Shown: positions 3,550 to 60,359 of the stretch, one piece after another
Numbering within the stretch: position 1 is the first letter of the stretch
Layout: every line of letters starts with the position of its first letter
Virus record (IMG/VR): IMGVR_UViG_3300028833_002727
From: a virus
Taxonomy: Duplodnaviria; Heunggongvirae; Uroviricota; Caudoviricetes
DNA length: 64,000 bases
Reading direction: 5' to 3' (one strand)
Program-made: the position numbers and the translations under genes
Notes under the pieces: model-generated
The model's database searches: none
The model's input: only the letters and a program-made list of their open reading frames with translations
Told to the model about the DNA's origin: nothing

Positions 3550-6312
3550 ATGGAAAATATTAAATTAACATTAAATAAAAATAAAAGTTTTTCAAGTGTA
3601 GATAAAATACAAAATCTACACTTGGATTTAGAATCTGAGGAAAAACTATTACCTGTAAGTGATTTACAAGGTAAGATAGACGCGTATGAACAATACTTAA
3701 AAGAAAAGGATGCGTGCAATACATATCGCTTCATTTTCACAATACGTCCTTATTGTTCAAATATTTTATTTAATCATATAACCGAAGTAGGATTACAAAA
3801 CCCATGGGTAAATTCCAAAATCCCATATCATGCATTATTTTTACACGAAGACAAAGCATACAATTTTGAATGTCATAATTTGTCAGACCCAAAATATTCT
3901 GATACAAAGAATGAGGCAGGAGTTAACGCACCAATAACAAGAGATACTGGATATTCAGATCAGTTGGATTATTATTGCGGTATAGACATTTTTAATAATC
4001 ATAATTTAAGAAGAAAAGAATTTGTTTGTATAAACCAACTAAAAGATGGTGAAACTAGGGACAAGGAATTTTTTAATACATTATTTGATTATGTAAGATC
4101 AGAGTCAGGCGCTAGAATTGATGGTTTTACATACAATATAAATAACCCTAGCGAGACAAGTTCGTTACATTTGTATACCAAAGATAGTGTATATTCATTC
4201 ACTGATGCCATTGCTAAAAATTTAGATGAAGAAAATGGTTGGGTTGGTTTTAAAAATGTTACAATTCTTGATACGTTTAAGACATCTGTGAAGGATAACC
4301 AAAAAATATATAAAATGTTGAAAAATTATCAACCATGTACATTTGTTGATATGTATCCAACAAGAAAACATTTTTCTTTCGTACCATTTATTAACAAAAA
4401 TCCAATTCGAACCGAAAAAAATTGGGAATACTTATTGACGTATCCATATAAAAATGTGTATGATAATCCATTAGTATATGATAATATGAGAAAAATTTAT
4501 GGTATTAGGTGTGACTTGGAATTACCTGAAAACATGGGAACAGATAGTGGTGAAATAAGTTTAAAACAGTTATTAGGTTTAGATGATGATAATCCCGTTA
4601 ATGTTCCACTAAACATTACATTTTCTTCTCATTTAAAACATAACTTAACTCAAAATGATAAAATCAATTTGCATATTTTCAATGGCAACGCGAAAGTATT
4701 TACAAGTAGTAATGTAAATATTGTGTCAACTGGTTATAATGGTTATGATAGCGAACATTATTTTTCTGTAGCGTTAAATGATGTTATAACTGACATGACA
4801 TTAGCACTTAATGTATACCCAGAAGGAATAATTGGTTTTAGATTTGAAAAAATTAGTGTTGGTAGACCTTGTAGATATTATCTTCGTAAATTTAGGAAAT
4901 TACCTAATTTTGATGGTATACAGGTAGATACAGCTAATGAAATAGCCAATGAAGAAACTATTAAAGAAGCACTACAAAACAACGAATTTTCATCTTCATT
5001 GAATAAATTAGGGTTTAGTAAAACAATATATGGTGATGATATTTCACAAATTATATATGATGATGTGAAAATTGAAGGCTTACGAGATAATTTAGGAAGA
5101 GAGTTATCAGTCATTTATTTAACAATCATTAAAACTAATTATGGGCATGATGATTGGTATAAAATAAGTAATGTGGATACTTATTTTCCGGTTAATAATA
5201 TTGAATATTCACATTGTTTTGGTAAAGTATCATCAGGATTCGATTTACAACCAACCGTGATAGATAAGGACGAGTATAATATTCATAGGCAGCACAACAT
5301 AACCACTACAGTAACGCCTAGGTCAAAAACGCTAATTAACAATATACAGGCTTCTAGTGCAAAATTAGAAGATGATATATCAGTGCGCAGTGATACTTTT
5401 CTTGAAAACTTTGATTTATTTGGGGACATTATTGAATTAAACGAAGCAACATTAGAAGAGACGGTTTTGGAAACAGTACAACATAGATTTAACACCGCAC
5501 AACGCGAGTTTGATGAAATCGTGGGTGATGATACAACTTCAAACCCCTTTTCTAAATTAACGATTGACACCATTGAACACGACGATTATGATAACGCTGC
5601 CGGATTTAAAGGTAAAACTGAAAACATAATGTGTGCAGGTTATTGGGCAAATATTGCACCAGAAGGATATTATTATCAAGCGCATTACCCAATAAGGATA
5701 AAACAATATGACACAATAGTTAATACTGGTTATCACACACAAGTTAAATTTACTGGTGTAACAGGTAAAACAATTACAACAGATGTAAACTATTATTTAG
5801 AGTTAAATGACGAATTATATTTGTTTAAGAAAGATGATAAAACCAATACAAAATATATCGCACATGTAGATAAAGTTGAAGGCGACGATTTTACAAAAAT
5901 TACATTATCAGTTCCAACTGATGCAACTGGTAGTCTTAGTGACTACATCATATTCAAACCTAATGTGTTAAAACCAGATGGGGCATATGATTTTGGTGAC
6001 ATTGAACCAAGTTCATATAGAGAAAAAAGTGGTAGATATGTATGGAGAGAGTTGTTACCATCATCAAAAATACCAAGAGATAGTGAACTATATGACTCTA
6101 TTTTTACTAATGGTGCAATATATCACTACAAAGACATCAATTTTTATGTAAAAAGACAAGATCCATACGGTGAATATGGTTTGCATCCATTATATAATAA
6201 AGATGAGGCTAGTGATACATGTATTAAACCATTTGATTTAGAATTCGATGGAAATGAAACAGATATTACATATGGTGACTACTTTGAACCTGGAGAGAAT
6301 AATGTTTGTTAA
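3550..6312 (+). CDS. Hypothetical virion structural protein (920 aa)
   Basis: Long ORF in the co-directional structural block. No recognisable motif. Confidence 0.4.
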   Translation: MENIKLTLNKNKSFSSVDKIQNLHLDLESEEKLLPVSDLQGKIDAYEQYLKEKDACNTYRFIFTIRPYCSNILFNHITEVGLQNPWVNSKIPYHALFLHEDKAYNFECHNLSDPKYSDTKNEAGVNAPITRDTGYSDQLDYYCGIDIFNNHNLRRKEFVCINQLKDGETRDKEFFNTLFDYVRSESGARIDGFTYNINNPSETSSLHLYTKDSVYSFTDAIAKNLDEENGWVGFKNVTILDTFKTSVKDNQKIYKMLKNYQPCTFVDMYPTRKHFSFVPFINKNPIRTEKNWEYLLTYPYKNVYDNPLVYDNMRKIYGIRCDLELPENMGTDSGEISLKQLLGLDDDNPVNVPLNITFSSHLKHNLTQNDKINLHIFNGNAKVFTSSNVNIVSTGYNGYDSEHYFSVALNDVITDMTLALNVYPEGIIGFRFEKISVGRPCRYYLRKFRKLPNFDGIQVDTANEIANEETIKEALQNNEFSSSLNKLGFSKTIYGDDISQIIYDDVKIEGLRDNLGRELSVIYLTIIKTNYGHDDWYKISNVDTYFPVNNIEYSHCFGKVSSGFDLQPTVIDKDEYNIHRQHNITTTVTPRSKTLINNIQASSAKLEDDISVRSDTFLENFDLFGDIIELNEATLEETVLETVQHRFNTAQREFDEIVGDDTTSNPFSKLTIDTIEHDDYDNAAGFKGKTENIMCAGYWANIAPEGYYYQAHYPIRIKQYDTIVNTGYHTQVKFTGVTGKTITTDVNYYLELNDELYLFKKDDKTNTKYIAHVDKVEGDDFTKITLSVPTDATGSLSDYIIFKPNVLKPDGAYDFGDIEPSSYREKSGRYVWRELLPSSKIPRDSELYDSIFTNGAIYHYKDINFYVKRQDPYGEYGLHPLYNKDEASDTCIKPFDLEFDGNETDITYGDYFEPGENNVC

Positions 6313-6327
6313 AAAAATTTATAGATT

Positions 6328-7560
6328 ATGGAACGAAGAACAATAGACGTTGATAGTATAACTAATAGTGAGAATGGTGTTAATTTCGAAATACCATTAT
6401 CTAATGATTTTGCAGTTGGGCTTCAACAAAACGATTCATTGAATAATTCTTATCTAGATGAAGTTAAAGAAAATAGTATCAATAAAGTAGTTAATTATGA
6501 GAAATATTTGTTTTATCCGGCATATCTAACAACAACTTTAAAATTTACTGGGGGTTATTTTATAGATAACAAAGGCGTACTACGACTAGGTTATCAACCT
6601 AAAATTGATGACTTAGATGACTATGTACGTGATGTTAACAAAATAACTTTCCACCTATATCTTAAACACCGTGAACATGATAGTAATAATGATTACGGTT
6701 CATGGAATAGTTCAGATGAATATTATTGGAATAGATGGGACGGAGAAACTGAATCTGATGGCAAGAAAAAAACAAGTAATAAATTATCGACTAAAAAAAA
6801 TGGCGATTTACTTGGTTGTTTAGGTTTTAACGACGAAGATGTACTTTATCAAAAAAACGCACTAAAAAAATCATTTTTACGTATATCAATATATGATTCA
6901 CCATATAGACAGACACAAAAATTGTTATATTATGCTACACTGTTTTTTGACACTAATGAATTATATAACAAATATAATTATCTAGCAAACACTTATACAA
7001 TTAAGGATGGACAACAAAGGGTATATCAAATTGAAGATAGAACTACCATGCCGATTACGCATGATGATGAGAAACTTACTGCTACTTTTACTTGTACTAG
7101 TAAAGACGATACCAGCGCCTGTAGTGATGGTTTTTATTTGTATCTGTTTAACACAATTGTAGATAGTAATAAAGCAACTCAACTATATATGAAAGTTGAA
7201 TTTAATAACGCAAAATATGGTAAGACAGTTGTATTAACAAATCCAAGGGTAAGAAAGGGAACCGATATTACTCTTAACGATCAATTAACATTAGATTATA
7301 ATAATGGTAACAATGATTTTCCAACTGATTATGAGGTGACAAGTGGTAGTGGAGATAACTCATATGTTGATATTGCAAAACTTTACGATGATTTATATAT
7401 ACCAATTTTTGTTAGGTATAATAGCAAAAAAAATAGATATGAATGGTATATTGCAAGTAATGAACAATGTGGATTATCATTAAAAACAAACCCAGACGAA
7501 GAACCAGGAAATATTAACATTTATTTATTTGAACCTAGAATAAACAAATTAAAACCATAA
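6328..7560 (+). CDS. Hypothetical structural protein (410 aa)
   Basis: ORF tightly packed in the structural operon. Confidence 0.4.
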   Translation: MERRTIDVDSITNSENGVNFEIPLSNDFAVGLQQNDSLNNSYLDEVKENSINKVVNYEKYLFYPAYLTTTLKFTGGYFIDNKGVLRLGYQPKIDDLDDYVRDVNKITFHLYLKHREHDSNNDYGSWNSSDEYYWNRWDGETESDGKKKTSNKLSTKKNGDLLGCLGFNDEDVLYQKNALKKSFLRISIYDSPYRQTQKLLYYATLFFDTNELYNKYNYLANTYTIKDGQQRVYQIEDRTTMPITHDDEKLTATFTCTSKDDTSACSDGFYLYLFNTIVDSNKATQLYMKVEFNNAKYGKTVVLTNPRVRKGTDITLNDQLTLDYNNGNNDFPTDYEVTSGSGDNSYVDIAKLYDDLYIPIFVRYNSKKNRYEWYIASNEQCGLSLKTNPDEEPGNINIYLFEPRINKLKP

Positions 7561-7571
7561 ACAACTTTAAT

Positions 7572-9485
7572 ATGGACAAAATACATAAAATAATAAACCT
7601 TGAACAAGCAAAAAATAGAACACCAAATCCAATACAACATTATGTTATTGATTATGAAGAACATACTTGTAATCCACAAGATTATGATACGTTTGGCGGG
7701 TATTGTTTAGACATTTTGGTACCAAAAACCGCCGAGATTTGTGTACCTTTGATTTCTTGGGCACACGATTTAGATGATATTTATCATTTTGAGGAAGTTG
7801 AAGTGACTGCATTTGATATTCTTAGTGAAAATGTTGTTCGTCCAAATTGTGAGTTTGGTAATTGTAATCCAGAGGATGTAACAATAGCATATTGGGTTCG
7901 TTATAAAAATTTAATGGCAATGTACCATTGGTTGTTAAATGTGTTTATACCGTCCATTAGTTTTTACCAAAAATGTACAAATGGATATAAATCAATTAAG
8001 GTTAATGACAGAAAAGACATTTTCAAAACTGATATTGAGATATTTAGTGAACTACCAACAAACGATGAATTTGAACCTGGAACAATTATAGGGGTAACAT
8101 CTATGTATGGCGAGTTTATTTCAAAATTCAAAAGTGTTGAAACATGTAAAGATTTTTTACTTTTCATGGAAAGATTGTTGAGTGAAGGTATATTTTCACC
8201 AATTTCAGGAACAACACCATATATTGATGTTGAATTATCAATTACAAGTAATAATACTGATCTTGGTATAATGTCGCCTGTATGTGAAGAATGGATACCG
8301 AATAAAAAATATCACCTTGGAGATGTTGTTTTATATAATGGTATAACATATATATTGGGTAAATGTGATGAAACGAAATATGATAAAATTGAATTAACTG
8401 GTGAACTATTAAACAGTATTTTGGAAATATTGAAAGATGAGTCTCAAGACATTTATAACGTTGTAACTTCATCCTCAGACATACCTGAAGAAACATTTAG
8501 GTTAAAAGTTATTAGTTACGACAATAAACCTCATGTATATAAGCAATGTTTATTGAAGCAAACAACTGCTGGAATAGTGACATGGTATTTAGTTTCTCCA
8601 TATGACGACGGATTTTATAGTAGGTATTCAAAAACAACTAAGTTTACTAGCGAAACTGGAAAAACAAATTGGACAATATATAGAAAAAACTATAATGTGT
8701 CTGACTCGACTTCATATACTGGAATTACCGAATCTAAGTTAATATCGCTAAAACGTAAAATTACTTCAGTTGATGATTTTGGTGAGATATTACCTTTTAT
8801 AATAAAAGATAATGACCCCAATAACACTCACGGTGAAATACCGTACATGTCTGGAATAACTAATGAACGTTTGTATGAGGATGGTACATTTAGGGCTGAT
8901 GATTTGCGTATAGTTTCAATTAGTCCGGTTAATACTGATGTTCCAAGTAGTTGGACTAATATTACAAGTGATTCAATTACTAGTGATAAATTTAACGATA
9001 GTGGATTTATTAAGTTCATATACACGATTGGCTGTGAATTAGGGAATACTAAACTTGTGCGCCCATACACTGGAGTAGAATATGTAGATGTTTGGAAATA
9101 CACCAAACAACAAATGACTGTTCGTATACAAGGAAGGAATTATACTTTTGATTATATTTTAATTACACCAATTGACAGTAATGAACCGATAAATAATCTT
9201 GATATTACCAATAAAACTCCTATATTATCAAAAATATCATATCACGGTGCAGAATTAAAATATCTTGATTATTTACTAGCCCCATATATTAAAGAAGAAG
9301 AATTATTGGGCGTACAAGACATTAACACTGTTGAATATGATATGCACACTGGAAAATATGTTAACACTGTTAATGGATACATCAAGCGAGGTACTGCTGG
9401 CGCATTAGAAAGACATCAGATTTTGGGTGAAGTAAAAACATTCAATGATTTAGAAAATTACAGGAATAATTTTTTCCAAATCTAA
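7572..9485 (+). CDS. Hypothetical structural protein (637 aa)
   Basis: Long ORF placed in the structural operon. Confidence 0.4.
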   Translation: MDKIHKIINLEQAKNRTPNPIQHYVIDYEEHTCNPQDYDTFGGYCLDILVPKTAEICVPLISWAHDLDDIYHFEEVEVTAFDILSENVVRPNCEFGNCNPEDVTIAYWVRYKNLMAMYHWLLNVFIPSISFYQKCTNGYKSIKVNDRKDIFKTDIEIFSELPTNDEFEPGTIIGVTSMYGEFISKFKSVETCKDFLLFMERLLSEGIFSPISGTTPYIDVELSITSNNTDLGIMSPVCEEWIPNKKYHLGDVVLYNGITYILGKCDETKYDKIELTGELLNSILEILKDESQDIYNVVTSSSDIPEETFRLKVISYDNKPHVYKQCLLKQTTAGIVTWYLVSPYDDGFYSRYSKTTKFTSETGKTNWTIYRKNYNVSDSTSYTGITESKLISLKRKITSVDDFGEILPFIIKDNDPNNTHGEIPYMSGITNERLYEDGTFRADDLRIVSISPVNTDVPSSWTNITSDSITSDKFNDSGFIKFIYTIGCELGNTKLVRPYTGVEYVDVWKYTKQQMTVRIQGRNYTFDYILITPIDSNEPINNLDITNKTPILSKISYHGAELKYLDYLLAPYIKEEELLGVQDINTVEYDMHTGKYVNTVNGYIKRGTAGALERHQILGEVKTFNDLENYRNNFFQI

Positions 9486-36540: not shown

Positions 36541-37122
36541 ATGGATAGTATTAGATTTTGTAAAAAACATGGCGAATGTGAACACGTGTTAAGTTCTGGT
36601 AAGTGGCGTTGTAAAAAATGCCGTAGTGAAGCGGTACAAAAACGTAGAGATAAGATTAAACTAATGTCTATTGAATATAAGGGTGGAAAATGTGAAATAT
36701 GCGGATATGACAAATGTATAGATGCATTAGAATTTCATCATTTAAATCCAAATGAAAAAGATTTTGGTATTGCCGAAAAAGGGTACACACGTTCATTTGA
36801 TAAAGTAAAAGAAGAGTTAGATAAATGTATTTTAGTTTGTGCGAATTGTCACAGAGAAATACACCATAAAGATAAAAAAAGAAATGTTTATGAATTGTTA
36901 AATGAAATTCACAATAAACAAGAAAAAGCAATTACGTCTAAAAAAGAAAGAAAACAAATACCAACCATAGATGAATTTATATCAGTATTTAAAATGTATT
37001 TAAACTTTACACAAGTTGGAAAATATTTTGGTGTCACAGATAATTCTGTGAGGAAATGGTGTAAAAAATATGGTTTACCAATCCATACTAAAGAATTGTG
37101 TAGGTATATACATAACATGTAA
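36541..37122 (+). CDS. HNH homing endonuclease with a C-terminal HTH-like module
   Basis: GKCEICGY...EFHHLNPNEKD...CANCHREIHH. Conserved leader AAGTATTTATTATAAAAG upstream. The stop overlaps the tRNA-Asn start. Confidence 0.75.
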   Translation: MDSIRFCKKHGECEHVLSSGKWRCKKCRSEAVQKRRDKIKLMSIEYKGGKCEICGYDKCIDALEFHHLNPNEKDFGIAEKGYTRSFDKVKEELDKCILVCANCHREIHHKDKKRNVYELLNEIHNKQEKAITSKKERKQIPTIDEFISVFKMYLNFTQVGKYFGVTDNSVRKWCKKYGLPIHTKELCRYIHNM

Positions 37123-37199
37123 CCGTAGTCAAGTGGCCAACGACAGCAGACTGTTAATCTGCCCCGAAAGGTTCCCAGGTTCGAATCCTGGCGGTTGCG
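37119..37199 (+). tRNA. tRNA-Asn(GUU), atypical 12-nt variable region
   Basis: Acceptor GTAACCG/CGGTTGC. Anticodon arm GCAGA-CTGTTAA-TCTGC. T-arm CCAGG-TTCGAAT-CCTGG. Confidence 0.55.
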
Positions 37200-37730
37200 C
37201 AAAAATCCAACACACCATTCCGTAAGTGGTTGAGGTTGATGTCTTTGTAGAGTATAGCGGTTACGGACGTGATTTTCTACATCTGGCTAAAGGCAATAAT
37301 ATAGTGAAACCTGGTTATCACGGCGCCTAGAGTGCGCAATTCGGGTTCAAATCCTGGCTATTGACAATAAGAGAGGCATACAGCAAAACAAAAAACTATT
37401 TTTTTAAAAACATTGAATTTGGGTTTCAAAAACGTTATAAAAAAGTGCCTCTTGTACTCAAGTATATATAGCCGCCACCCCCAAGTACAAGGGGCACACC
37501 AGACTTACATGGTTATCTCTTTTCCTGGAGAGATTGTAAAATAGGGCATTAGGAGCGAGTTAGTTGGATCAGAACTTATCTGATTAGAGAATTGCCCGCA
37601 GTCTGCGAACGTAAATAAGCAGTAATGGTAGATATGGGGAGCACTGAATTACGTAATAGATGTTTCATGAAACTATCTAAAAGTGACAAGCAAGCCACTT
37701 TAGCGTGTGATAAAACCGCACAGGGCGCCG

Positions 37731-39542: not shown

Positions 39543-40829
39543 ACAACAAAAGATTACTTATTACTGATCTTCTACTATAAATTTTATAAGTGTTAGGATT
39601 GGAAGTGTCCATACTTAATGAGTGGTTGCCCACCGGATCTATTAACGCCCATTGGTAACAGATGGAAACGCAACTTAGTCGGATAAATGGAAAAAGAAAC
39701 TTTAAGTTCAATTTTATGTGAGTGTAACTGAAAAGGAATTGCATAAAATATATTTACCTTTGGTGTAAAAACACGCTTATATAATTTTTTTACGTATATT
39801 TAAAACGAAGAGAGACGTACAGCAAAACTCACACTTTATTGGAAAACAGCAAATTTTCTACCAAAAGCAAATTGTCTCTTGTAAATGCTTGAATACTTTT
39901 CATAAGCAACATATACGGAAGACGTACAGCAAAGCATTTTTAGGATAACACTTTTAATGTTAAATTCTTGTCTTCTGAACTACAGTTGGCAACTGACTTA
40001 TAGTTGCGGAGAAAATCGGGATGATAACCCGTTGACTGTTGTGTGTTTTCAACATGACGTGAACACTCGCTGAGGTTAGAATTTTTCCGCATAGGCTAAT
40101 CACCAGAAATTCAAATTTTTCAACTCCACCATTTCATTGGTGGACAAAGACACGAAACCCTAACACGGTACTAAATTCGTGACTGCCAGGTTATAAGGTT
40201 GCTCCTGACAAAAATAGTTCTTAGGTGAACGGTATGCCAATAAGCTTTTAATTAGCGCCTGAAGCAGACTTTCTTCGGTGGGTGAAAGTCAAACCTGGGT
40301 CGCGCCAGGATTGGTAGCAAATAATAACTTATGTGCCTGAATAAGCGGTAGACTGCTGCTAAAGGACGTATTGTTGTACTGAAAAGTACGCGGTGCGGTT
40401 AACGGGCATTACGAAGCATAAAGTTGAATTAGCCACGGTTGGCCAACCGTGAGTGACGTAAGAACAGGACAAATCGTGTTTTATGACTGAGGTCTGTATC
40501 CTGTTGGAGGTAATCATTCCTCCCACCCATTCAAACTAAGAGAGTTGCTAACTCTTAGGGGTGTGACTGAATAATGTGCGTAGTGTTTGGTTTTATAGGT
40601 AGTCAGGAATCCTATCATTTGTTATTACCTTTTATGTCTTATGTTGTATTATTCTTTTTTGTGAGATATAAACAACTGTCCCAAGACATTAGACTTGTGA
40701 AAGGCTGTAGTGTTTGTTTTATTAGTTTTCTGTCAAAGTGCAGTAACCTTGACGTCAGGACAAAACATGAAAACTAATTTTTATCGTGGCAGAGTGAAAC
40801 GGATATGTCGATAAGCATTTCGGCAGACA

Positions 40830-40881
40830 TCATCAGAGGCTCATAACCTCTGGATAGTGGGTTCGACTCCCGCAGCCGCAA
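40830..40881 (+). other. Partial tRNA-like: anticodon arm (CAU), T-arm and 3' acceptor strand without a matching 5' half
   Basis: AGAGG-CTCATAA-CCTCT, GGATA, GTGGG-TTCGACT-CCCGC, AGCCGCA-A. No complementary TGCGGCT upstream. Confidence 0.3.
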
Positions 40882-40887
40882 CAATAT

Positions 40888-40998: not shown

Positions 40999-41082
40999 GG
41001 AACTATGGGTCGTGGGTTCGAGTCCCGCCCGCCCGACTAAATAACACAAATCGGGCGGTAGCTCAGTTGGCAGAGCAATAGT
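40999..41082 (+). other. Permuted tRNA locus 1. The 3' half (41002-41036) lies upstream of the 5' half (41052-41082).
   Basis: The 3' half is ACTAT-GGGTC-GTGGG-TTCGAGT-CCCGC-CCGCCCG-A. A 15-nt spacer follows. The 5' half is CGGGCGG-TA-GCTC-AGTTGGCA-GAGC-A-ATAGT. The acceptor strands are perfectly complementary and the anticodon-stem halves ATAGT/ACTAT are complementary. Leader ATAGAC is complementary to trailer GTCTAT. Confidence 0.45.
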
Positions 41083-43655: not shown

Positions 43656-43740
43656 GCCACATTGGGACAGTTGGTCGACTCCGCTTGACTTGTAATCAAG
43701 ATGCTTATGCGCGCCGTCGGTTCGAATCCGGCATGTGGCT
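43656..43740 (+). tRNA. tRNA with anticodon UGU (Thr) but an 85-nt type-II-like body (15-nt variable region)
   Basis: GCCACAT/ATGTGGC. CTTGA-CTTGTAA-TCAAG. GTCGG-TTCGAAT-CCGGC. Confidence 0.5.
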
Positions 43741-44461
43741 CTAAATAAGGTTGACGGTAGATGTCATTAAATCATTCTACAGAACTAAATTTACTGAGTT
43801 CAGTACTCCTCACGGGGAGTTCAAAGTAAAAAGGGGTGCCGAGTCCTCTTGAGCCTTATGACAGTTTACGTTCAATATTCAGAGGGGAGTAGCTTTGAGC
43901 GAAATTAAAACATCTGACCCTTATTTGGTAGTTGGACGTTATCCTATATTGTCCGTCTGATGTTCATGCGCAGAACAGTCATTCGTAAAAATCGTAATCG
44001 AACACCTCTTTAGTTCGAAATGAAGGGTTGTGGTAAATCTAATGCTTAGTGTTACGGATAAGATAGCAACGCAGTATGCTAACAAGACTATGCTGCTCAT
44101 TTTTTGGACGCGGTTGTTTTATGGTTAAAAAACATCCTAGCCTCTTCGGAGGTTGAACCAATAGTATCACCCAACTCGCAGAGTTAGGACGCTAAACCAG
44201 TGGCGCGCCAAAGATATTCGTCAGGCGCTGAGCCTTTCGCCAGAAGGCAGTGGTGATATTTTTAATAGTCGCTCATCCGACTTATTTTCCTGGTTTTGTA
44301 TAAATCAGGTGGTGGCCAAGCCGTGGGTTTTTTACCAAATACCCTGCATCGTTTTTTGGGTTGGAGTTAAGCATTGGCAAGATTGTGATGCTCATTAGTG
44401 AATTCGGTTAAAGTCCGAAAGCTTCATCCCCCTTACAAAACGGTGTGAACTAATAAATTTT

Positions 44462-44726: not shown

Positions 44727-44812
44727 TGCCTCTTGGTGTAACTGGCTAGCACGTCAGATTTTGATTCTGGAGGGTCCGAAAGGCATTGGGGGTTCGAATC
44801 CCTCAGAGGCAA
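44727..44812 (+). tRNA. tRNA with anticodon UUG (Gln) and a long 18-nt variable region (86 nt)
   Basis: TGCCTCT/AGAGGCA. GTGT-AACTGGCTA-GCAC. TCAGA-TTTTGAT-TCTGG. GGGGG-TTCGAAT-CCCTC. Confidence 0.5.
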
Positions 44813-45120
44813 CAATAGTAGAACGTATAGTTTAATGATAGCGCGCTAAAACATGTAGAACAACGGCGTAGTAAGTCGTAGGTATAGGTTTGATTCCTTT
44901 TGCGCTCTGAATCAGTCACTGATGTTGTCAAGACTCGTTCTTGGCTGGGATATAAAAGCATTACACTGGTAAAATTTTTCTGAAAAAAACACAAAATATC
45001 ATATAAAAGTTGTATATTTAACTTGAAGAGAGACTTACAGCACAATTTAAGATTTCCACAATCTAAACCAAACGTCTCTTGACAAAAAATAAATACAATC
45101 AAAAAAAACAATCACAAGTA

Positions 45121-49146: not shown

Positions 49147-49220
49147 GACAAGGTGCCTGAGTGGACTAAAGGGGCGCTCTGCAAAAGCGTTGTTCGTCGG
49201 TTCGAATCCGACCCTTGTCT
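49147..49220 (+). tRNA. tRNA-Cys(GCA)
   Basis: GACAAGG/CCTTGTC. GCGCT-CTGCAAA-AGCGT. GTCGG-TTCGAAT-CCGAC. Confidence 0.85.
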
Positions 49221-49738: not shown

Positions 49739-49825
49739 TTAAGGAAGGGGTCGCGGGTTCAAGTCCCGTCATCGTCTCAAAAAAAAAATGTATGACGATG
49801 TAGCTCAGTTGGTTAGAGCACTTAA
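49739..49825 (+). other. Permuted tRNA locus 2. The 3' half (49739-49777) lies upstream of the 5' half (49794-49825).
   Basis: The 3' half is TTAAG-(9 nt)-GCGGG-TTCAAGT-CCCGT-CATCGTC-T. A 16-nt spacer follows. The 5' half is GACGATG-TA-GCTC-AGTTGGTTA-GAGC-A-CTTAA. The acceptor and anticodon-stem halves are complementary. It sits inside a unit bounded by AGAGAC...GTCTCT. Confidence 0.45.
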
Positions 49826-50111: not shown

Positions 50112-50804
50112 ATGGGTATGAGAACAAACAAAACAAAAGAAGATTTTATAGAAGCAGCAAAACATAGTTTTAGTATTGCTGGAATGTGTAGATTTCTTGG
50201 TTGGAAACCATCTGGAAGTTATAATGTGATTAAGAAATATATCCGCGAATACGATATTGATACATCACATTTTACAGGAAAGAAATGCGTTGGAAGAGTT
50301 GCATCTAACAAATTGAGTGCAATTGAGTATTCGAAAAGTTATTATTGTAAAAGTGCAACTTTACTGAAAAAACTTATTGAAGAAGGTTTGAAAGAACACA
50401 AATGTGAAAAATGTGGTAGAACAGAGTGGGAAGGTGATAAAATACCACTAGAACTACATCATATTGATGGAAATCATTATAATAATGTTTTTGATAACCT
50501 AATCGCGTTATGTCCAAATTGTCATGCACAAACAAATGGATATAAGGGGAGGAAAAAAAGATTTTGTTCTGAGTGTGGAAAAGAGATAACAAGATATAGT
50601 AAAACAGGGCTATGTAATGTATGTAATCATACAATAAATCAACGAAAAGTTGATTGGCCTACAAAAGAAGAATTAGAATTGTTACTGGAAACAAATAGTA
50701 TGGAAGCAATAGGAAGGCTTTACAGTGTTTCTGGCACAACAGTTAAAAAATGGAAAAACAAATATAATATAAAAATGAATAAGCGTAACAAGAATATTAA
50801 GTAG
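50112..50804 (+). CDS. HNH homing endonuclease with a C-terminal HTH-like module
   Basis: HKCEKCGRTEWEG...LELHHIDGNHYNN...LCPNCHAQT. Conserved leader AGAAGTATTTATTATATATAAAA upstream. Confidence 0.8.
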   Translation: MGMRTNKTKEDFIEAAKHSFSIAGMCRFLGWKPSGSYNVIKKYIREYDIDTSHFTGKKCVGRVASNKLSAIEYSKSYYCKSATLLKKLIEEGLKEHKCEKCGRTEWEGDKIPLELHHIDGNHYNNVFDNLIALCPNCHAQTNGYKGRKKRFCSECGKEITRYSKTGLCNVCNHTINQRKVDWPTKEELELLLETNSMEAIGRLYSVSGTTVKKWKNKYNIKMNKRNKNIK

Positions 50805-50916
50805 TAATGGTGTAAATCTTAATGATTGCACCAATTAAGGCCTGCAAGCATTAAGGTGATGCACGAAACTCTTAATTTCGGGAAGAGGGGTCAGTACCCT
50901 CGCGGGCCACACATAT

Positions 50917-51095
50917 TGCGGGGTAGAGCAGAGGCAGCTCGTCAGGCTCATATAATGTGATAAGCATTAACAATCTTATCGAGACTATTGTTTAAAGTTC
51001 CGTATTATAATCGGACTGGAAATCAGCTGTAAGTGGGTTCGAAACCCATCAATAGTCCAACCTGAAGGTCGGTGGTTCGAGTCCACCCCCCGCAA
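50917..51095 (+). tRNA. tRNA(CAU) (Met or Ile2) carrying a ~107-nt insertion/intron in the anticodon loop (50954-51060)
   Basis: TGCGGGG/CCCCGCA acceptor. GAGC-AGAGGCA-GCTC D-arm. TCAGG-CTCATAA-[107 nt]-CCTGA. AGGTC. GGTGG-TTCGAGT-CCACC. The insertion carries its own hairpins. Confidence 0.5.
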
Positions 51096-51251
51096 CACTT
51101 TTGATGGTTTGAATTAGGAAATCACACGCAGAGCGCGAGGTGTCATGGAGCGCACTCTACCGTTCGAGATGGAGTACACGGCGTTTTTTCACGGAAAGTA
51201 TCCAATCCTAGGATTTTTGTTTACTGGAAGTGGTTGTACGGAACAACATTT

Positions 51252-51351
51252 GCCGAGATAGTGCAGTGGTTAGCATGTCGAATCAATACTGACGTGAAAA
51301 CGTTATAGGGGTTGCTCTTCGAAGACTGAGGTTCGATTCCTTGTTTTGGCT
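51252..51351 (+). ncRNA. tRNA-like element C (100 nt), same T-arm as element A
   Basis: GCCGAGA/TTTTGGC with two G-U pairs. GTGC-AGTGGTTA-GCAT. A 5-7 bp stem with the 9-nt loop AATCAATAC. A 31-nt variable region. TGAGG-TTCGATT-CCTTG. Confidence 0.35.
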
Positions 51352-51583
51352 CAAAAAAAAATGAAAAAAAAGTTGATAAATGTTCACTTTTTAAAATAAT
51401 AAGGTATATTTATTATAGAAACAAAACAAAAAACATGGGAAGTAATTAAAATATGAAGTTGTATCTTGGACATATGGTGTATGGGTTTGGCTACCGTTTT
51501 GGTTGGCTAGGTGACTCTGTGTGTTCATAGGTAGAGGTTTTTTGAAACATGTTTGAAAACTATATATAAAGCCATGAGGCAAA

Positions 51584-51625
51584 ACCTTGAAAGATGAACA
51601 CAACCAAATCTTCCAAGGTTTTTTC
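51584..51625 (+). terminator. Putative rho-independent terminator
   Basis: ACCTTG...CAAGGT stem then TTTTTT. Confidence 0.4.
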
Positions 51626-51757
51626 ATTATATAGGAGTGTAGTACAATGGCTAGTATGGCGGTGTAATGTAATAAAAATCGAACTAAATCATATTTTTTT
51701 GGATAAAAATTATACTTTTTTTCGAACTAAGAAGTATTTATATAAAAACAAAAAAAT

Positions 51758-52696
51758 ATGGAAGAAAACGATTTTATTGAAAAACTACGTAAAAATGGAG
51801 ATAAATGCCGCAATATGTACGAATTATGCCTTAAACTTGGGATTACTAGTATTGGTGGTGAGACATATCGTGAAATTAGAAGTATTGCTGAAGAAAATAA
51901 TATTACTTTAGTTTTTAATGGTTTATCAAAAAAGATAACACAAAAAAATCAAGAAAAAAAACTTGAAGAATTATTGTGTGATGATAGTGTTATAACTAGT
52001 AATAAGTTGAAAATGAAAATAATTGAGAATGGGTTAAAGCCATATAGATGTGAATGCTGTGGAAATACTGAATGGAACGGAAAACCAATACCGCTTGAAT
52101 TACACCACATTAATGGAAAACATAATGACAATCGTATAGAAAACCTTCAATTACTATGTCCAAATTGTCATGCACAAACAGATAACTATTGTGGAAAAAA
52201 TACTGGTAATAAAAAGAAATTAAGAAAGATAGTAAAGGTTAACAAAACAACTGGTAATTTATCTTATGTTAATAAACAATATTTGATTAATCTATTATAT
52301 TTACATCCAATTAAAGAGGTTGCAAAACAGTTGGAAATTAATGAGTATCGTTTAAAATATTGGTTAAAGAAATTAGAAATACATGTATCAAATAAGTGGA
52401 GGGAAGATTTACATAAAAATAACCCTGAAATATTTGGAATATGTGAATATTGTGGAAAACGATTTATAAAAAAAACATTAGAACAAAAATTTTGTAATCA
52501 AGAATGTAGTAAATTGTCAACTAGAAAAATAGAGATAACAAAGGAAAAACTGATACATAGTTTAAAAGAAAACAAAAGTTTTGTACAAACAGGAAAGATG
52601 TTTGGTGTAAGTGATAAATGTGTTATTAAATGGTGTGCAAGATTTGGTATACCAAATAGAAAAAAGGAAATGATAGAATACATTAAACGTATATAA
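51758..52696 (+). CDS. HNH homing endonuclease with a C-terminal HTH-like module
   Basis: YRCECCGNTEWNG...LELHHINGKHNDN...LCPNCHAQT. Leader AAGAAGTATTTATATAAAAAC. tRNA-Trp follows 5 nt after the stop. Confidence 0.8.
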   Translation: MEENDFIEKLRKNGDKCRNMYELCLKLGITSIGGETYREIRSIAEENNITLVFNGLSKKITQKNQEKKLEELLCDDSVITSNKLKMKIIENGLKPYRCECCGNTEWNGKPIPLELHHINGKHNDNRIENLQLLCPNCHAQTDNYCGKNTGNKKKLRKIVKVNKTTGNLSYVNKQYLINLLYLHPIKEVAKQLEINEYRLKYWLKKLEIHVSNKWREDLHKNNPEIFGICEYCGKRFIKKTLEQKFCNQECSKLSTRKIEITKEKLIHSLKENKSFVQTGKMFGVSDKCVIKWCARFGIPNRKKEMIEYIKRI

Positions 52697-52700
52697 ACAC

Positions 52701-52772
52701 AGGAGTGTGGTGTAATGGCAAACATAAACGGCTCCAACCCGTTAGATGTGGGTTCGATTCCTGCCACTCCTG
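52701..52772 (+). tRNA. tRNA-Trp(CCA)
   Basis: AGGAGTG/CACTCCT. AACGG-CTCCAAC-CCGTT. GTGGG-TTCGATT-CCTGC. Confidence 0.8.
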
Positions 52773-52797
52773 CAAAAAAATTAAAAAAAAGTGCAAA

Positions 52798-52835
52798 AAT
52801 ATTTGGTTATTTGAAAAAAAAGCAGTATCTTTGCA
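52798..52835 (+). promoter_or_regulatory. Promoter repeat copy 4. It is near-identical to copy 1, including ~40 nt of downstream leader.
   Basis: TTTG at 52802-52805 and TAtcTTTG at 52826-52833. Shared ...GCACCAGAAATTGAA...AGATCAGTGATA. Confidence 0.6.
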
Positions 52836-52978
52836 CCAGAAATTGAAAACAAGCGAACATTGAAATAAGATCAGTGATAAAAATAGTTAGTAACTAAGAC
52901 TTGGGTTAAACTCCCATGTTGGCGGTGACTGCATCGAGATAGTGTGAAAATGATAGCACGAGTTATTAACTATAAAAT

Positions 52979-53051
52979 GGTGCAGTAGCTCAGTTGGTAG
53001 AGCAGCAGACTGAAGATCTGCGTGTCGGCGGTTCGATTCCGTCCTGCACCA
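52979..53051 (+). tRNA. tRNA-Phe(GAA)
   Basis: GGTGCAG/CTGCACC. GCAGA-CTGAAGA-TCTGC. GGCGG-TTCGATT-CCGTC. Confidence 0.85.
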
Positions 53052-53172
53052 CAAAAATACCGAGGCGTTGGTGGGCGTTACACAAGTTAAACCAATTTAG
53101 CGGGTCTCTGTGTAATACTGGATATTCTGGATAATATAGGCCGATTCAGGAATATGTGTAGGTATTTTTTAA

Positions 53173-53254
53173 TGGGAGTGTTCCTAATGCGGTAGTTAGG
53201 ACCAGACTGTAAATCTGGCGCTTCGGCTTCGGGGGTTCGAATCCCTCCACTCCC
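53173..53254 (+). tRNA. tRNA-Tyr(GUA)
   Basis: GGGAGTG/CACTCCC. CCAGA-CTGTAAA-TCTGG. Long variable arm. GGGGG-TTCGAAT-CCCTC. Confidence 0.8.
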
Positions 53255-53460
53255 ACAAAAATCCAAGATACTTACTGCAATAAGGTGAGGTGGCGTTTTA
53301 CTGACATTTGCAGATGGAGGTAATTCGTAAAGATGAATTTGGTGTATGGCGGCACATTGGGTGGCTAAACCCAAAGGAGAGCAACAGCGACGGTTGTTGT
53401 ACGTCAATTGACGCCTAATGGTTGCGTGTCAATTGGTAGGTTCGATTCCTCATTTTCAAC

Positions 53461-53631
53461 AAAAGACTGTGTAGGTAGGGGTTTGTAGCGCTAACTGCAA
53501 ATCAACCGCCGACAATGGCACAGAAAGAAAGCACATGGATGCGGTATTGGGGCATAACGTCCCCTTTATCTCAACCACCTTTAGCGGGGTAAAGTGTGTT
53601 AGTATGGAATGTTGGTTCAATTCCAACCACA
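53461..53631 (+). tRNA. tRNA-like with a ~97-nt insertion in the anticodon loop. Candidate anticodon GCA (Cys). D-arm unresolved.
   Basis: Perfect acceptor GACTGTG/CACAGTC. GCTAA-CTGCAAA-[~97 nt]-TTAGT. GTTGG-TTCAATT-CCAAC. Confidence 0.35.
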
Positions 53632-53841
53632 GTCTCCCATAGTTTGGTAGTATCTTATACGCGTTAAAAAACTACCCGGTGATGTATTATCCCACAGCCG
53701 AATTATTAAGTTGCCACTTAATAAAATTGTTGGGAAAAAGATGGTTGTAAGCCCCGGCAAGGGTGAGGCACCTGGCGTTTCGAGATAGAAATGGAGATAT
53801 TTTTGCCGATTTATCGAAGTGAAGAAATCCGATTCGTAAAG

Positions 53842-54564: not shown

Positions 54565-54650
54565 GCAGGTGTCGCCTAGTGGACGATGGCGCCGGATTTC
54601 CAATCCGGAGTGGCGAAAGCCCCACGAGAGTTCGAATCTCTTCACCTGCT
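54565..54650 (+). tRNA. tRNA with anticodon UCC (Gly codons) on a type-II body (3-bp D-stem, 17-nt variable arm)
   Basis: GCAGGTG/CACCTGC. GCC-TAGTGGACGAT-GGC. CCGGA-TTTCCAA-TCCGG. GAGAG-TTCGAAT-CTCTT. Confidence 0.5.
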
Positions 54651-54669
54651 CATAAAATTTAAAAATAAC

Positions 54670-56155: not shown

Positions 56156-56372
56156 CAAATAATTACGCAATCCATCGCGCCCATTCGATAGAAGTAAGTG
56201 GTGAGGAAGTTCAGGACACTCATTTGGGAGTGAAAGTCTAAGTATAGGTGGTTACCCAAATTATTGCCTCCAGGGTAAGACGAATAGTTAAATGATGGAT
56301 ATAGGTACAGAATCCTGGCTATTACGTAATTATTTTATTACAACAATAATAATAAACAAAAAAACAAAAGAC

Positions 56373-59655: not shown

Positions 59656-59729
59656 TCTCTCATAGCTCAACTGCATAGAGCACATTTCTCCTAAAAATGG
59701 GGTTCCGAGTTGAAGTCTCGGTGGGAGAG
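59656..59729 (+). tRNA. tRNA-Arg(CCU) with a non-standard T-loop TTGAAGT
   Basis: TCTCTCA/TGGGAGA. GCTC-AACTGCATA-GAGC. CATTT-CTCCTAA-AAATG. CCGAG-TTGAAGT-CTCGG. Confidence 0.6.
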
Positions 59730-59748
59730 CAAAAATTTTTATTTTATA

Positions 59749-60359
59749 TGGCAGAAAACAAAGATTGGACTGGCAATAGTCGTTCGGTATATGGAACAAT
59801 CGGAGCAAGCAATCATACAGAAGGTGAACGCGAGGAAAATGACTATTACGCAACATCGCCGATTGCGATGGAGTTGATATTAGAGAAAGAATCATTTAAT
59901 AAAGACATTTGGGAGTGTGCAGCAGGTGGAGGACACTTATCAAAGGTATTACGCAAACATGGACACAATGTTCGTTGCAGTGATATTATAGATAGAACTG
60001 GTGACACTGAAATACTTGACTTTTTGACGTACAAAGGTACATGGGATGGTGATGTTGTTACCAATCCGCCTTACAAATACGCTCAAGAGTTTGTTGAAAA
60101 GGCATTAGAGATAGTTCCAGATGGTAACAAAGTAGCAATGTATCTTAAACTTACTTTTCTGGAAGGTAAGAAGCGTCAAAAGATGTTCAAGAAATATCCA
60201 CCTAAATACGTTTATGTTGCCGCAGGGCGTATGGGGTGTGCCAAAAATGGTGAGTTTTCTGATATGGAACATGAATATGAAGCGGGCGCAGTGGCATTTG
60301 CCTGGTTTATATGGGAAAAAGGTTACAAAGGTGAGCCAATAATAAGGTGGTTTAATTAA
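59749..60359 (+). CDS. N6-adenine DNA methyltransferase (small; motif I before motif IV)
   Basis: ECAAGGGHL (motif I) and VVTNPPY (motif IV). The start is placed downstream of the tRNA overlap. Confidence 0.7.

Follow-up and report, generated by a model that had tools for sequence, protein, structure and literature searches.

A stretch of phage DNA of 64,000 nucleotides (nt), the viral record IMGVR_UViG_3300028833_002727 (here called the window), carries at positions 50917-51095 a methionine transfer RNA (tRNA) gene, locus 1, whose anticodon loop is interrupted by a 107-nt insert. Sequence comparison confirms locus 1 as a genuine phage tRNA-Met gene split by a structured insert that holds a degenerate tRNA. 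On balance we favour the reading that this insert is a real, mobile and structured intron removed by structure-reading enzymes. Inserts of ~100 nt in megaphage tRNAs have been unexplained since 2019, and locus 1 and its relatives supply a concrete anatomy for them.

Locus 1 and the structure of its insert

When introns are allowed, ARAGORN calls locus 1 (50917-51096) as a tRNA with a 107-nt insert, and identical settings call nothing in 920 kb of array sequence whose dinucleotides had been shuffled block by block. The junction that ARAGORN itself reports (32/33, anticodon UCC) is one among several equivalent placements. At least 120 IMG/VR contigs contain an exact copy of the joined anticodon arm CGTCAGGCTCATAACCTGAAGGTC, and the whole joined tRNA-Met is 92-93% identical over 72 nt to the uninterrupted viral tRNA-Met genes L219 and L217. 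An orthologous locus on a 351-kb contig (L112, 8293-8465; fetched viral loci are cited by L number) reads CTCAT/TT...AC/AA and allows a single junction placement. Together, the uninterrupted genes and the L112 ortholog therefore place the locus 1 insert at 50952-51058 (or 50953-51059), with a mature loop of CTCATAA. The initial annotation had described a tRNA with anticodon CAU and a 107-nt anticodon-loop insert, which the ARAGORN call, the empty shuffle control and the uninterrupted counterparts bear out. The length it gave stands, but its placement of the insert at 50954-51060 would leave the loop CTCATAT and does not. The parts of locus 1 are as follows.

50917-50951, + strand: 5' exon of the initiator-like tRNA-Met(CAU) called by ARAGORN -i, with acceptor 5' strand, D-arm (A11:U24), anticodon stem 5' strand and loop CTCAT
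50952-51058, + strand: 107-nt insert (mini-intron), whose junction slides by 1 nt (50953-51059)
50953-50980, + strand: 5' module of the insert, with helix S1, TAATG (50953-57)/CATTA (50965-69), interleaved with helix H1, GATAAG (50959-64)/CTTATC (50975-80)
50983-51057, + strand: nested degenerate tRNA, with closing helix GACTATTG (50983-90)/CAATAGTC (51050-57) and weak D and anticodon arms
51059-51095, + strand: 3' exon of tRNA-Met, with AA, anticodon stem 3' strand, variable loop, T-arm, acceptor 3' strand and A73

Removal of the insert restores a canonical tRNA-Met(CAU), with a predicted exon junction after splicing of ...GTCAGGCTCAT/AACCTGAAGG... (core GGCTCAT/AACCTGA). We take this tRNA to be initiator-like from its A11:U24 pair and its overall likeness to tRNA-fMet of E. 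coli.

The insert has two modules. Together, S1 and H1 make up an H-type pseudoknot directly next to the 5' junction, within the first 29 nt of the insert, with CATTA opening the H1 loop and TAATG occupying insert positions 2-6. This parse has a score of 12, which 0.7% of shuffles attain; such single-sequence tests are weak (scores of 7-12 base pairs (bp) are attained by 1-40% of shuffles), and we relied on permutation of cognate and non-cognate strands and on orthologs. A 2-nt linker separates the 5' module from an 8-bp, acceptor-like closing helix, and a lone C (51058) lies between this helix and the 3' junction. Within the nested element, the perfectly paired T-arm-like hairpin GTGGG-TTCGAAA-CCCAT (51033-51049) is real, as the initial annotation had noticed, and forms part of the tRNA-like fold. 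The minimum-free-energy fold of the insert retains both this hairpin and the closing helix, and the 5-bp stem of the nested anticodon arm has two mismatches.

Tests for a tRNA within the insert gave a score of 23.9 bits with the Rfam tRNA model in the window (50984-51057, under the gathering score), 28 bits in L112 and an ARAGORN call in the related contig L270, all below or near the curated threshold; the element is therefore degenerate. ARAGORN made no call on the window insert alone. No Rfam family but tRNA matches the locus 1 insert at E<=10 in a search of 50800-53700.

The exons and the insert have had different histories. Contigs L270 and L271 are ~94% identical to the window over 3 kb, with 99% identity in an HNH gene upstream of locus 1 and 96-100% in the spacers. 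The exons of L271 match those of the window at 34/35 and 36/36 positions, and the 117-nt insert of L270/L271 (L270 locus 1142-1331) is only 54% alignable to the window insert. It is a mosaic in which the 5' hairpin is of L112 type, the closing helix and T hairpin are of window type and the interior is new. Exons that are kept while the insert is largely replaced in a ~94% relative mean that the insert behaves as a mobile cassette, and the change between these genomes has the character of cassette replacement, not gradual drift. In the more distant L112, which has a 100-nt insert, compensatory changes in the D-stem and the T-stem have preserved the cloverleaf of the exons. S1, the closing helix and the T hairpin are made in L112 and L270 of sequences that differ from those of the window. 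Insert-bearing tRNA-Lys and tRNA-Arg genes likewise keep their exon cloverleaf by compensatory changes between L018 and L021. The label 'mini-intron', one of those offered for locus 1 by the initial annotation, is supported: the joined exons give a canonical tRNA, orthologs (L112, L270) conserve them with compensatory changes, and the insert belongs to the recurrent structured family described below.

The window is an AT-rich phage contig, identical to ENA ERZ27257202 k141_1545242 and to Logan contigs. The source samples have the accessions ENA ERZ27257202 and SRA SRR7634052 and SRR9006730, and relatives occur in ERZ28612998 and ERZ27280476. Its tRNA array spans ~23 kb and has at least 34 tRNA genes and a transfer-messenger RNA (tmRNA), with four or five homing-endonuclease-like genes scattered through it; further genes of the window encode a Thg1-like enzyme, NadR and a TonB-dependent receptor. 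A small S24-like protein of the array has homologs on phage contigs of 350-660 kb, including Wendovervirus sonii (order Grandevirales, 68% identity), and these homologs therefore point to a Lak-related megaphage as the source. The 64 kb seen fit a Lak-type megaphage with a large tRNA array. The host is expected to be bacterial: the tmRNA tag ends in ALAA and a gene for a TonB-dependent receptor is present. A megablast search of INPHARED found no close relative of the window, and blastn gave one chance 53-nt match; our initial DNA patterns for orthologs of the interrupted tRNA had zero matches in IMG/VR.

A family of inserts in related megaphages

Homologs of the HNH gene upstream of locus 1 led to the tRNA arrays of related megaphages, and a conserved neighbour protein led to closer relatives of the window. 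A synteny route through a 220-amino-acid protein (59697-60359) was abandoned, as it led to relatives without tRNA arrays. In the arrays of related megaphages, many tRNAs carry inserts of 66-173 nt, several of which are spanned by the Rfam tRNA model at 44-56 bits. We parsed the anatomy in 11-12 inserts, eleven of them from Met, Lys, Arg, Gly and Ala tRNAs.

In the eleven parsed inserts, S1 starts 0-5 nt past the 5' junction and is mostly interleaved with the H1 hairpin, and a closing helix of 6-10 bp starts at insert position 28-40. The 3' strand of the closing helix is immediately preceded by a T-loop-like hairpin (GTTCGAA in eight inserts, GTGCAAGTC in two). An unpaired C, or two nt in one case, precedes the 3' junction, and the insert ends in C in 11/11 members. 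The closing-helix sequences are all different, and cognate strands pair over a mean of 7.7 bp against 3.65 bp for non-cognate strands (permutation p<1e-5). In a MAFFT alignment of seven inserts that share a 5' ATACGG-type motif (alignment A6), 90.9% of cells are paired and 14/22 pairs have changed on both sides; 0/500 shuffles were as good, and slid controls pair at 22-40%. MAFFT misaligns the closing helix across subfamilies, and pair counting was limited to A6.

S1 is invariant inside the ATACGG subfamily and differs between lineages (CGG:CCG, AAG:CTT, GGG:CCC, AGCG:CGCT, GCCC:GGGT, TAATG:CATTA, AGTG:CACT in L112 and TTAGTG:CACTAA in L270). Its cognate pairing exceeds non-cognate pairing with moderate support (permutation p=0.006). 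In the ATACGG subfamily (L018, L021, L243 and L267), the 5' sequence AUA(C/A)GG, the loop ACCGAAAC and the terminal C are conserved and unpaired. Simpler relatives in L088, L091 and L090 have a nested tRNA that starts flush with the 5' junction.

The point of insertion varies between tRNAs: it is 34/35 in L024, L026 and L243, 35/36 in the Lys and Arg tRNAs of L018 and L021, and 36/37 in the Gly tRNA of L018, in L112 and in the window (36/37 or 37/38). The insert ends are constant whatever the position in the tRNA loop, and all family members regain an exact 7-nt loop when the insert is taken out. Constant ends at varying positions indicate that the junctions are set by the insert and not by the tRNA.

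Pattern and model searches added few members. The metagenome pattern CGTCAGGCTCAT-N85-115-AACCTGAAGGTC gave 31 matches, mostly tandem tRNA-fMet genes, among which only L243, L267 and L248/L249 are genuine. An apparent new member at L028 6470-6567, found with a covariance model of the ATACGG subfamily (R1), was rejected because it is not inside a tRNA.

Proposed removal and spread of the insert

If junctions are defined by the intron's own structure and not by exon sequence, the RNA would be cut by structure-reading enzymes. We propose that locus 1 is a functional gene whose tRNA-Met loop is split, just past the anticodon (36/37 or 37/38), by a two-module mini-intron, made of a 5' hairpin or pseudoknot that begins 1-2 nt beyond the 5' junction and a nested tRNA. 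Both junctions lie at the base of an insert helix. The 3' junction is the expected RNase Z site of the nested mimic; for the 5' junction the helix is S1, at whose 5' base it falls in the window, L112 and L270. A cut at the 5' base of a helix is the geometry of RNase P model substrates, and 3'-OH and 5'-phosphate ends are the substrates of Rnl-type ligases. On this scheme RNase Z would cut on the 3' side, after the discriminator-like C of the tRNA mimic. The 5' cut, at the base of the 5' helix, might be made by RNase P, perhaps using the phage's own candidate minimal RNase P RNA (below). Together the two cuts would leave the anticodon loop with a 3'-OH and a 5'-phosphate end, for an Rnl-type RNA ligase to seal. 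The related array L029 ends with a gene for a PF09414 RNA ligase. We know of no protein-dependent tRNA splicing in bacteria or their phages. A pathway of RNase P, RNase Z and Rnl ligase would be a third tRNA-splicing route, not described before and built entirely from ordinary tRNA end-processing enzymes; we offer it tentatively and consider it rather unlikely to hold in this form. If true, a mobile cassette would be taking advantage of this route while protecting tRNA genes against the HNH homing endonucleases beside them.

Several observations weigh against the intron reading or the scheme built on it. We infer splicing of locus 1 from exon conservation alone. The link between HNH genes and introns is an association. 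The pseudoknot is weak in some members: that of the Lys inserts has 2 bp, and L112 and L270 lack H1. The window insert scores 15.9 bits (E 0.25) with the covariance model of the ATACGG/ACCGAAAC subfamily (7 members), a model that does not discriminate, as ordinary tRNAs score 20-40 bits with it; since the window insert falls below them, its family membership rests on architecture, not sequence. Two groups of inserts misfit the RNase P and RNase Z scheme: in ATACGG-type inserts the 5' junction is 3 nt before the first S1 pair, and in L088 and L091 the 3' junction is 4-6 nt beyond the closing helix. RNase P and RNase Z alone, tried as an explanation of both junctions, accordingly fail in some members. 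Finally, no RNA ligase, RtcB or splicing endonuclease was found with Pfam or PHROGs among the open reading frames of the 64-kb window.

Three other readings of the insert have to be set against removal by structure-reading enzymes. It could be a new small self-cleaving or self-splicing ribozyme, with the conserved 5' pseudoknot and the compact tRNA-like fold holding the two junctions close to each other and host RtcB sealing 2',3'-cyclic phosphate and 5'-OH ends. The conserved unpaired nucleotides at both ends of one subfamily (5' AUA(C/A)GG, loop ACCGAAAC, terminal C) would suit this, as would junctions that follow intron structure at varying tRNA positions, lengths of 73-117 nt that are typical of small ribozymes and the lack of a dedicated splicing protein among the window genes. 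The end motifs are, however, not kept in the lineage of the window, L112 and L270 (ATAATG and TTAGTG versus ATACGG), no Rfam ribozyme or group I model matches even at E<=10, no internal guide complementary to the exons was seen and tRNA mimicry accounts for most of the conserved structure, so that we regard a ribozyme as unlikely. A further possibility is that the insert is never removed, the tRNA having been inactivated by a mobile tRNA-like element (a scar or pseudogene) or serving as a non-decoding RNA, for example a decoy for tRNA-targeting defences of the host. The array does hold two other CAU tRNAs (40806 and 55269) and several degenerate tRNA-like pieces (50837-50911, 51630-51665 and matches to YrlA), and the insert turns over rapidly. 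The exons speak the other way: those of L271 are 70/71 identical despite a replaced insert, those of the distant L112 keep the cloverleaf by compensatory D- and T-stem changes, the Lys and Arg tRNAs of L018 and L021 show the same conservation and every family member restores the 7-nt loop exactly. We consider permanent retention distinctly unlikely, and with it the 'insertion scar' of the initial annotation, given that a 94%-identical genome has a different insert between exons that match at 70/71 positions.

It is highly improbable, in our view, that the nested element is itself the functional product, a second tRNA freed by RNase P and RNase Z from an outer tRNA that is a carrier or is sacrificed. 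Its tRNA scores (23.9 bits in the window, 28 bits in L112) and the ARAGORN call in L270 fit such a product, and Devoto et al. suggested that one Lak intron 'may encode a tRNA' (PMC6784885). Against this, the nested anticodon arms are degenerate (two mismatches in the 5-bp stem of the window), L243 has a long hairpin with a tetraloop in place of the 7-nt loop, ARAGORN is silent on the window insert alone, and between near-identical genomes the interior is wholly different, with only the acceptor-like helix and T-arm kept. For the intron that we favour, the insert anatomy and the natural variants (tRNAs, loop positions and swapped cassettes) make the mechanism testable in vitro.

Among known systems the closest is that of Devoto et al. 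2019 (Nat Microbiol, PMC6784885), who reported 'enigmatic introns' in Lak megaphage tRNAs and noted that the one in tRNA-Thr(UGU) may itself encode a tRNA; enigmatic tRNA introns are reported again, for jumbo phages, by a 2026 survey (PMC13037316). The locus 1 insert belongs to this known, unexplained kind of Lak-megaphage nested-tRNA intron. Like the Lak introns (PMC6784885) it is an anticodon-loop insert of ~100 nt in a phage tRNA of a large array, is unclassifiable by Rfam and has a predicted nested tRNA. Unlike them, since they are reported to be identical across cohorts (PMC6784885), the window insert has been swapped between ~94%-identical genomes, and its two-module anatomy, variable insertion position, single-C 3' end and HNH adjacency are not described for the Lak introns in that paper. 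In the literature searched there was no published removal mechanism for megaphage tRNA introns. To the 2019 account our analysis adds the two-module anatomy with covariation, the variable site, cassette exchange, the HNH association and a processing model.

Group I introns of bacterial tRNAs (cyanobacterial tRNA-Leu(UAA) and tRNA-fMet, Azoarcus tRNA-Ile, and those of Patescibacteria; PMC13011429) also lie in the anticodon loop, including that of initiator tRNA, and share with the window insert their mobility, often with homing endonucleases. Group I introns are, however, at least ~200 nt long and have a P1-P9 core, a G-binding site, a 5' exon U and a terminal G, whereas the window insert has 107 nt, a terminal C and no guide. 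We rejected a group I identity: Intron_gpI gave no match at the gathering score or at E<=10, no exon-complementary guide was seen on inspection and the insert ends in C. Introns of ~200 nt in tRNA-Leu(UAA) are present in other fetched loci, so this distinction is not a detection failure. In IMG/VR, L036, L045, L049, L061, L066, L075 and L085 have HNH-adjacent tRNAs, mostly Leu(UAA), with inserts of 187-226 nt, the classical group I size.

Archaeal and eukaryal tRNA introns carry a bulge-helix-bulge motif and are removed by the EndA/Sen endonuclease and the ligases RtcB or Trl1. The window insert is like them short, non-catalytic and beside the anticodon, with splice sites set by RNA structure. 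Its family differs in having no bulge-helix-bulge and in its positions, 34/35, 35/36 and 36/37. By fold and inspection, the junctions of locus 1 lie in a three-way junction of anticodon stem, S1 and closing helix, and there are no two 3-nt bulges around a 4-bp helix. The 'BHB-like' (bulge-helix-bulge-like) element of the initial annotation is therefore not supported, as the 3-4-3 motif is absent and related inserts do not sit at a fixed 37/38. No EndA-family splicing endonuclease was found among the open reading frames of the window (64 kb) by Pfam or PHROGs. A search of the inserts against intron and ribozyme models, also suggested earlier, returned no match; the small ribozymes covered (hammerhead, twister, twister-sister, pistol, hatchet, HDV-like and hairpin) had no Rfam match at E<=10 in 50800-53700 and none in the relatives. 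Bulge-helix-bulge, hammerhead, twister and HDV topologies were also rejected on visual check.

Processing signals that mimic tRNAs and are cut by RNase P or RNase Z include mitochondrial tRNA punctuation, MALAT1 mascRNA and the tRNA-like structure of turnip yellow mosaic virus (TYMV). As in these, a non-decoding tRNA mimic with acceptor-like helix, T-arm and elbow stands where the RNA would have to be cut in the window insert, whose 3' junction coincides with the expected RNase Z site. Those signals are only cut, whereas the flanks at locus 1 would need to be re-joined in the anticodon loop, which is undescribed for those systems.

At the DNA level, the insert probably shields the tRNA gene against the HNH endonuclease encoded next to it and spreads together with that endonuclease, as in collaborative homing. 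The neighbour is the following gene.

50112-50804, + strand: free-standing HNH endonuclease (Pfam HNH), 113 nt upstream of locus 1, a candidate homing partner

A free-standing HNH gene usually accompanies inserts of this architecture: in L018, L021, L024 and L026, homologs of the gene above are 9-79 nt away from a tRNA with an insert. In L018 and L021 the interrupted tRNA-Arg also has a second HNH paralog in front of it. The inserts would thereby be linked to homing-endonuclease traffic within tRNA arrays. F-CphI and psbA in cyanophage S-PM2 are a known case of collaborative homing. A free-standing endonuclease beside an interrupted gene is also found for mobE/I-TevIII in T4 (PMC2790892) and, in the T4 tRNA cluster, for SegB (PMC2330249). 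As in those systems, the insert would disrupt the endonuclease target, and exchange between close relatives is cassette-like. The known introns of collaborative homing are self-splicing group I introns, whereas the window insert matches no group I model, and the HNH partner here is a candidate.

Three further observations concern the surroundings of the interrupted tRNA. Between the HNH gene and locus 1 lies a degenerate tRNA-Lys(CUU)-like element (50837-50911) that is 83% identical to the tRNA-Lys(CUU) of L022/L023, has an aberrant T-loop (GTCAGTA) and receives no ARAGORN or Rfam call. Downstream, a second HNH gene (51758-52696) and a duplicated 5' piece of tRNA-Trp (51630-51665, like the start of the tRNA-Trp at 52701) are missing from L270/L271, where the tRNA-Trp follows directly (compared region 51630-52772); the pattern suggests that a homing-endonuclease gene was inserted recently and its target duplicated. 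In L112, a GOLLD-like RNA (7717-8136; 48.8 bits, E 1.5e-10, gathering score 150) lies just upstream of the orthologous interrupted tRNA-Met.

Locus 2 and other RNA elements of the array

A second site had been proposed as a tRNA with an anticodon-loop insert. We describe it as follows.

53464-53639, + strand: locus 2, a tRNA-like RNA with an 8-bp terminal helix (53464-71/53628-35) and a T-arm (53611-27)

The terminal pairing and the T-arm of the earlier proposal stand, but its coordinates are slightly off (53461-53631 with a 7-bp helix). The T-arm loop is a canonical TTCAATT, and the interior holds a 9-bp hairpin (53480-88/53495-503) and a hypervariable centre at ~53520-53575. Both terminal helix and T-arm are conserved in five ~94%-identical contigs, where one U-A to U-G change keeps pairing. 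There were no homologs of locus 2 beyond these ~94% relatives in the 2.2 Mb of fetched loci or in IMG/VR. No single deletion yields a cloverleaf with a unique anticodon arm, and from its sequence locus 2 appears to be a conserved tRNA-like RNA with a hypervariable centre and no definable anticodon arm. On inspection it lacks the closing helix, T-like hairpin and 5' module of the insert family, and the earlier claim that the two inserts are mutually unrelated is confirmed.

Could locus 2 nevertheless be an intron-bearing tRNA-Cys(GCA), with a 77-97-nt intron of another family? U73 is the known Cys discriminator, and the ends of locus 2 can be read as a 7-bp acceptor with U73 and a canonical T-loop. 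ARAGORN -i makes the call in the window and in five relatives, and the conserved ends around a hypervariable centre recall locus 1. The anticodon arm, however, is arbitrary: of 1760 deletions placed arbitrarily within the locus ARAGORN accepts 720, and a wide range of anticodons results. There is a mismatch in the D-stem, and both models have an abnormal variable region (25 nt unpaired or 8 nt). The Rfam tRNA model has no match at locus 2 even at E<=10, and neither of the joined anticodon arms proposed for it is present in IMG/VR, so that an uninterrupted counterpart is lacking. The features of the insert family are not seen, and a canonical tRNA-Cys is already present at 49147. We find the tRNA-Cys reading possible but doubtful, and neither the stem said to form only across the insertion nor the anticodon GCA holds up against the accepted deletions, the mismatched D-stem, the Rfam result and the arms missing from IMG/VR.

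Directly after tRNA-Arg(ACG), the array contains a candidate for a phage-encoded minimal (type-T-like) RNase P RNA.

56159-56333, + strand: minimal RNase P RNA-like gene, catalytic domain only, matched end-to-end by Rfam RNaseP_arch over 175 nt

It scores 44.4 bits (E 1e-9 to 1.6e-11), under the gathering score of 84. It has the universal CR-I, CR-IV and CR-V, with the motifs GAGGAA.UC, AAGUC, GGGUAAGACG and ACAGAA..GGCUA, and the specificity domain is wholly replaced by 4 nt. A second copy lies at 15318-15477 of L018 (54.1 bits). A literature search found no report of a phage gene for a minimal RNase P RNA; if real, the gene would be an unexpected addition to the translation-related genes of phages.

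Other tRNA-like elements of the array are also unusual. A third tRNA-like gene (51252-51352; 44.9 bits with Rfam tRNA) has an anticodon loop enlarged by ~28 nt, which fold into an extended hairpin capped by a GAAA tetraloop. ARAGORN labels it Ala(UGC), but it is without G3:U70, and L270 keeps its acceptor while the whole interior differs (61% alignable). The Asn, Thr, Gln and Gly(UCC) tRNAs normally have short variable loops; those of the window (37119-37200, 43656-43741, 44727-44813 and 54565-54651) have long variable arms, small hairpins that are mostly GAAA-capped. Sub-threshold matches to the tRNA-like domain of YrlA, a bacterial Y RNA, lie inside tRNA arrays at 41004-41080 and 49745-49825 and in L116 at 6300-6422 (37-45 bits, E ~1e-5 to 1e-6). 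The element at 40806-40882 that ARAGORN calls tRNA-Met has an initiator-like 3' end (GCCGCAAC) and a 5' strand that is not complementary to it, and may be another disrupted or rearranged tRNA.

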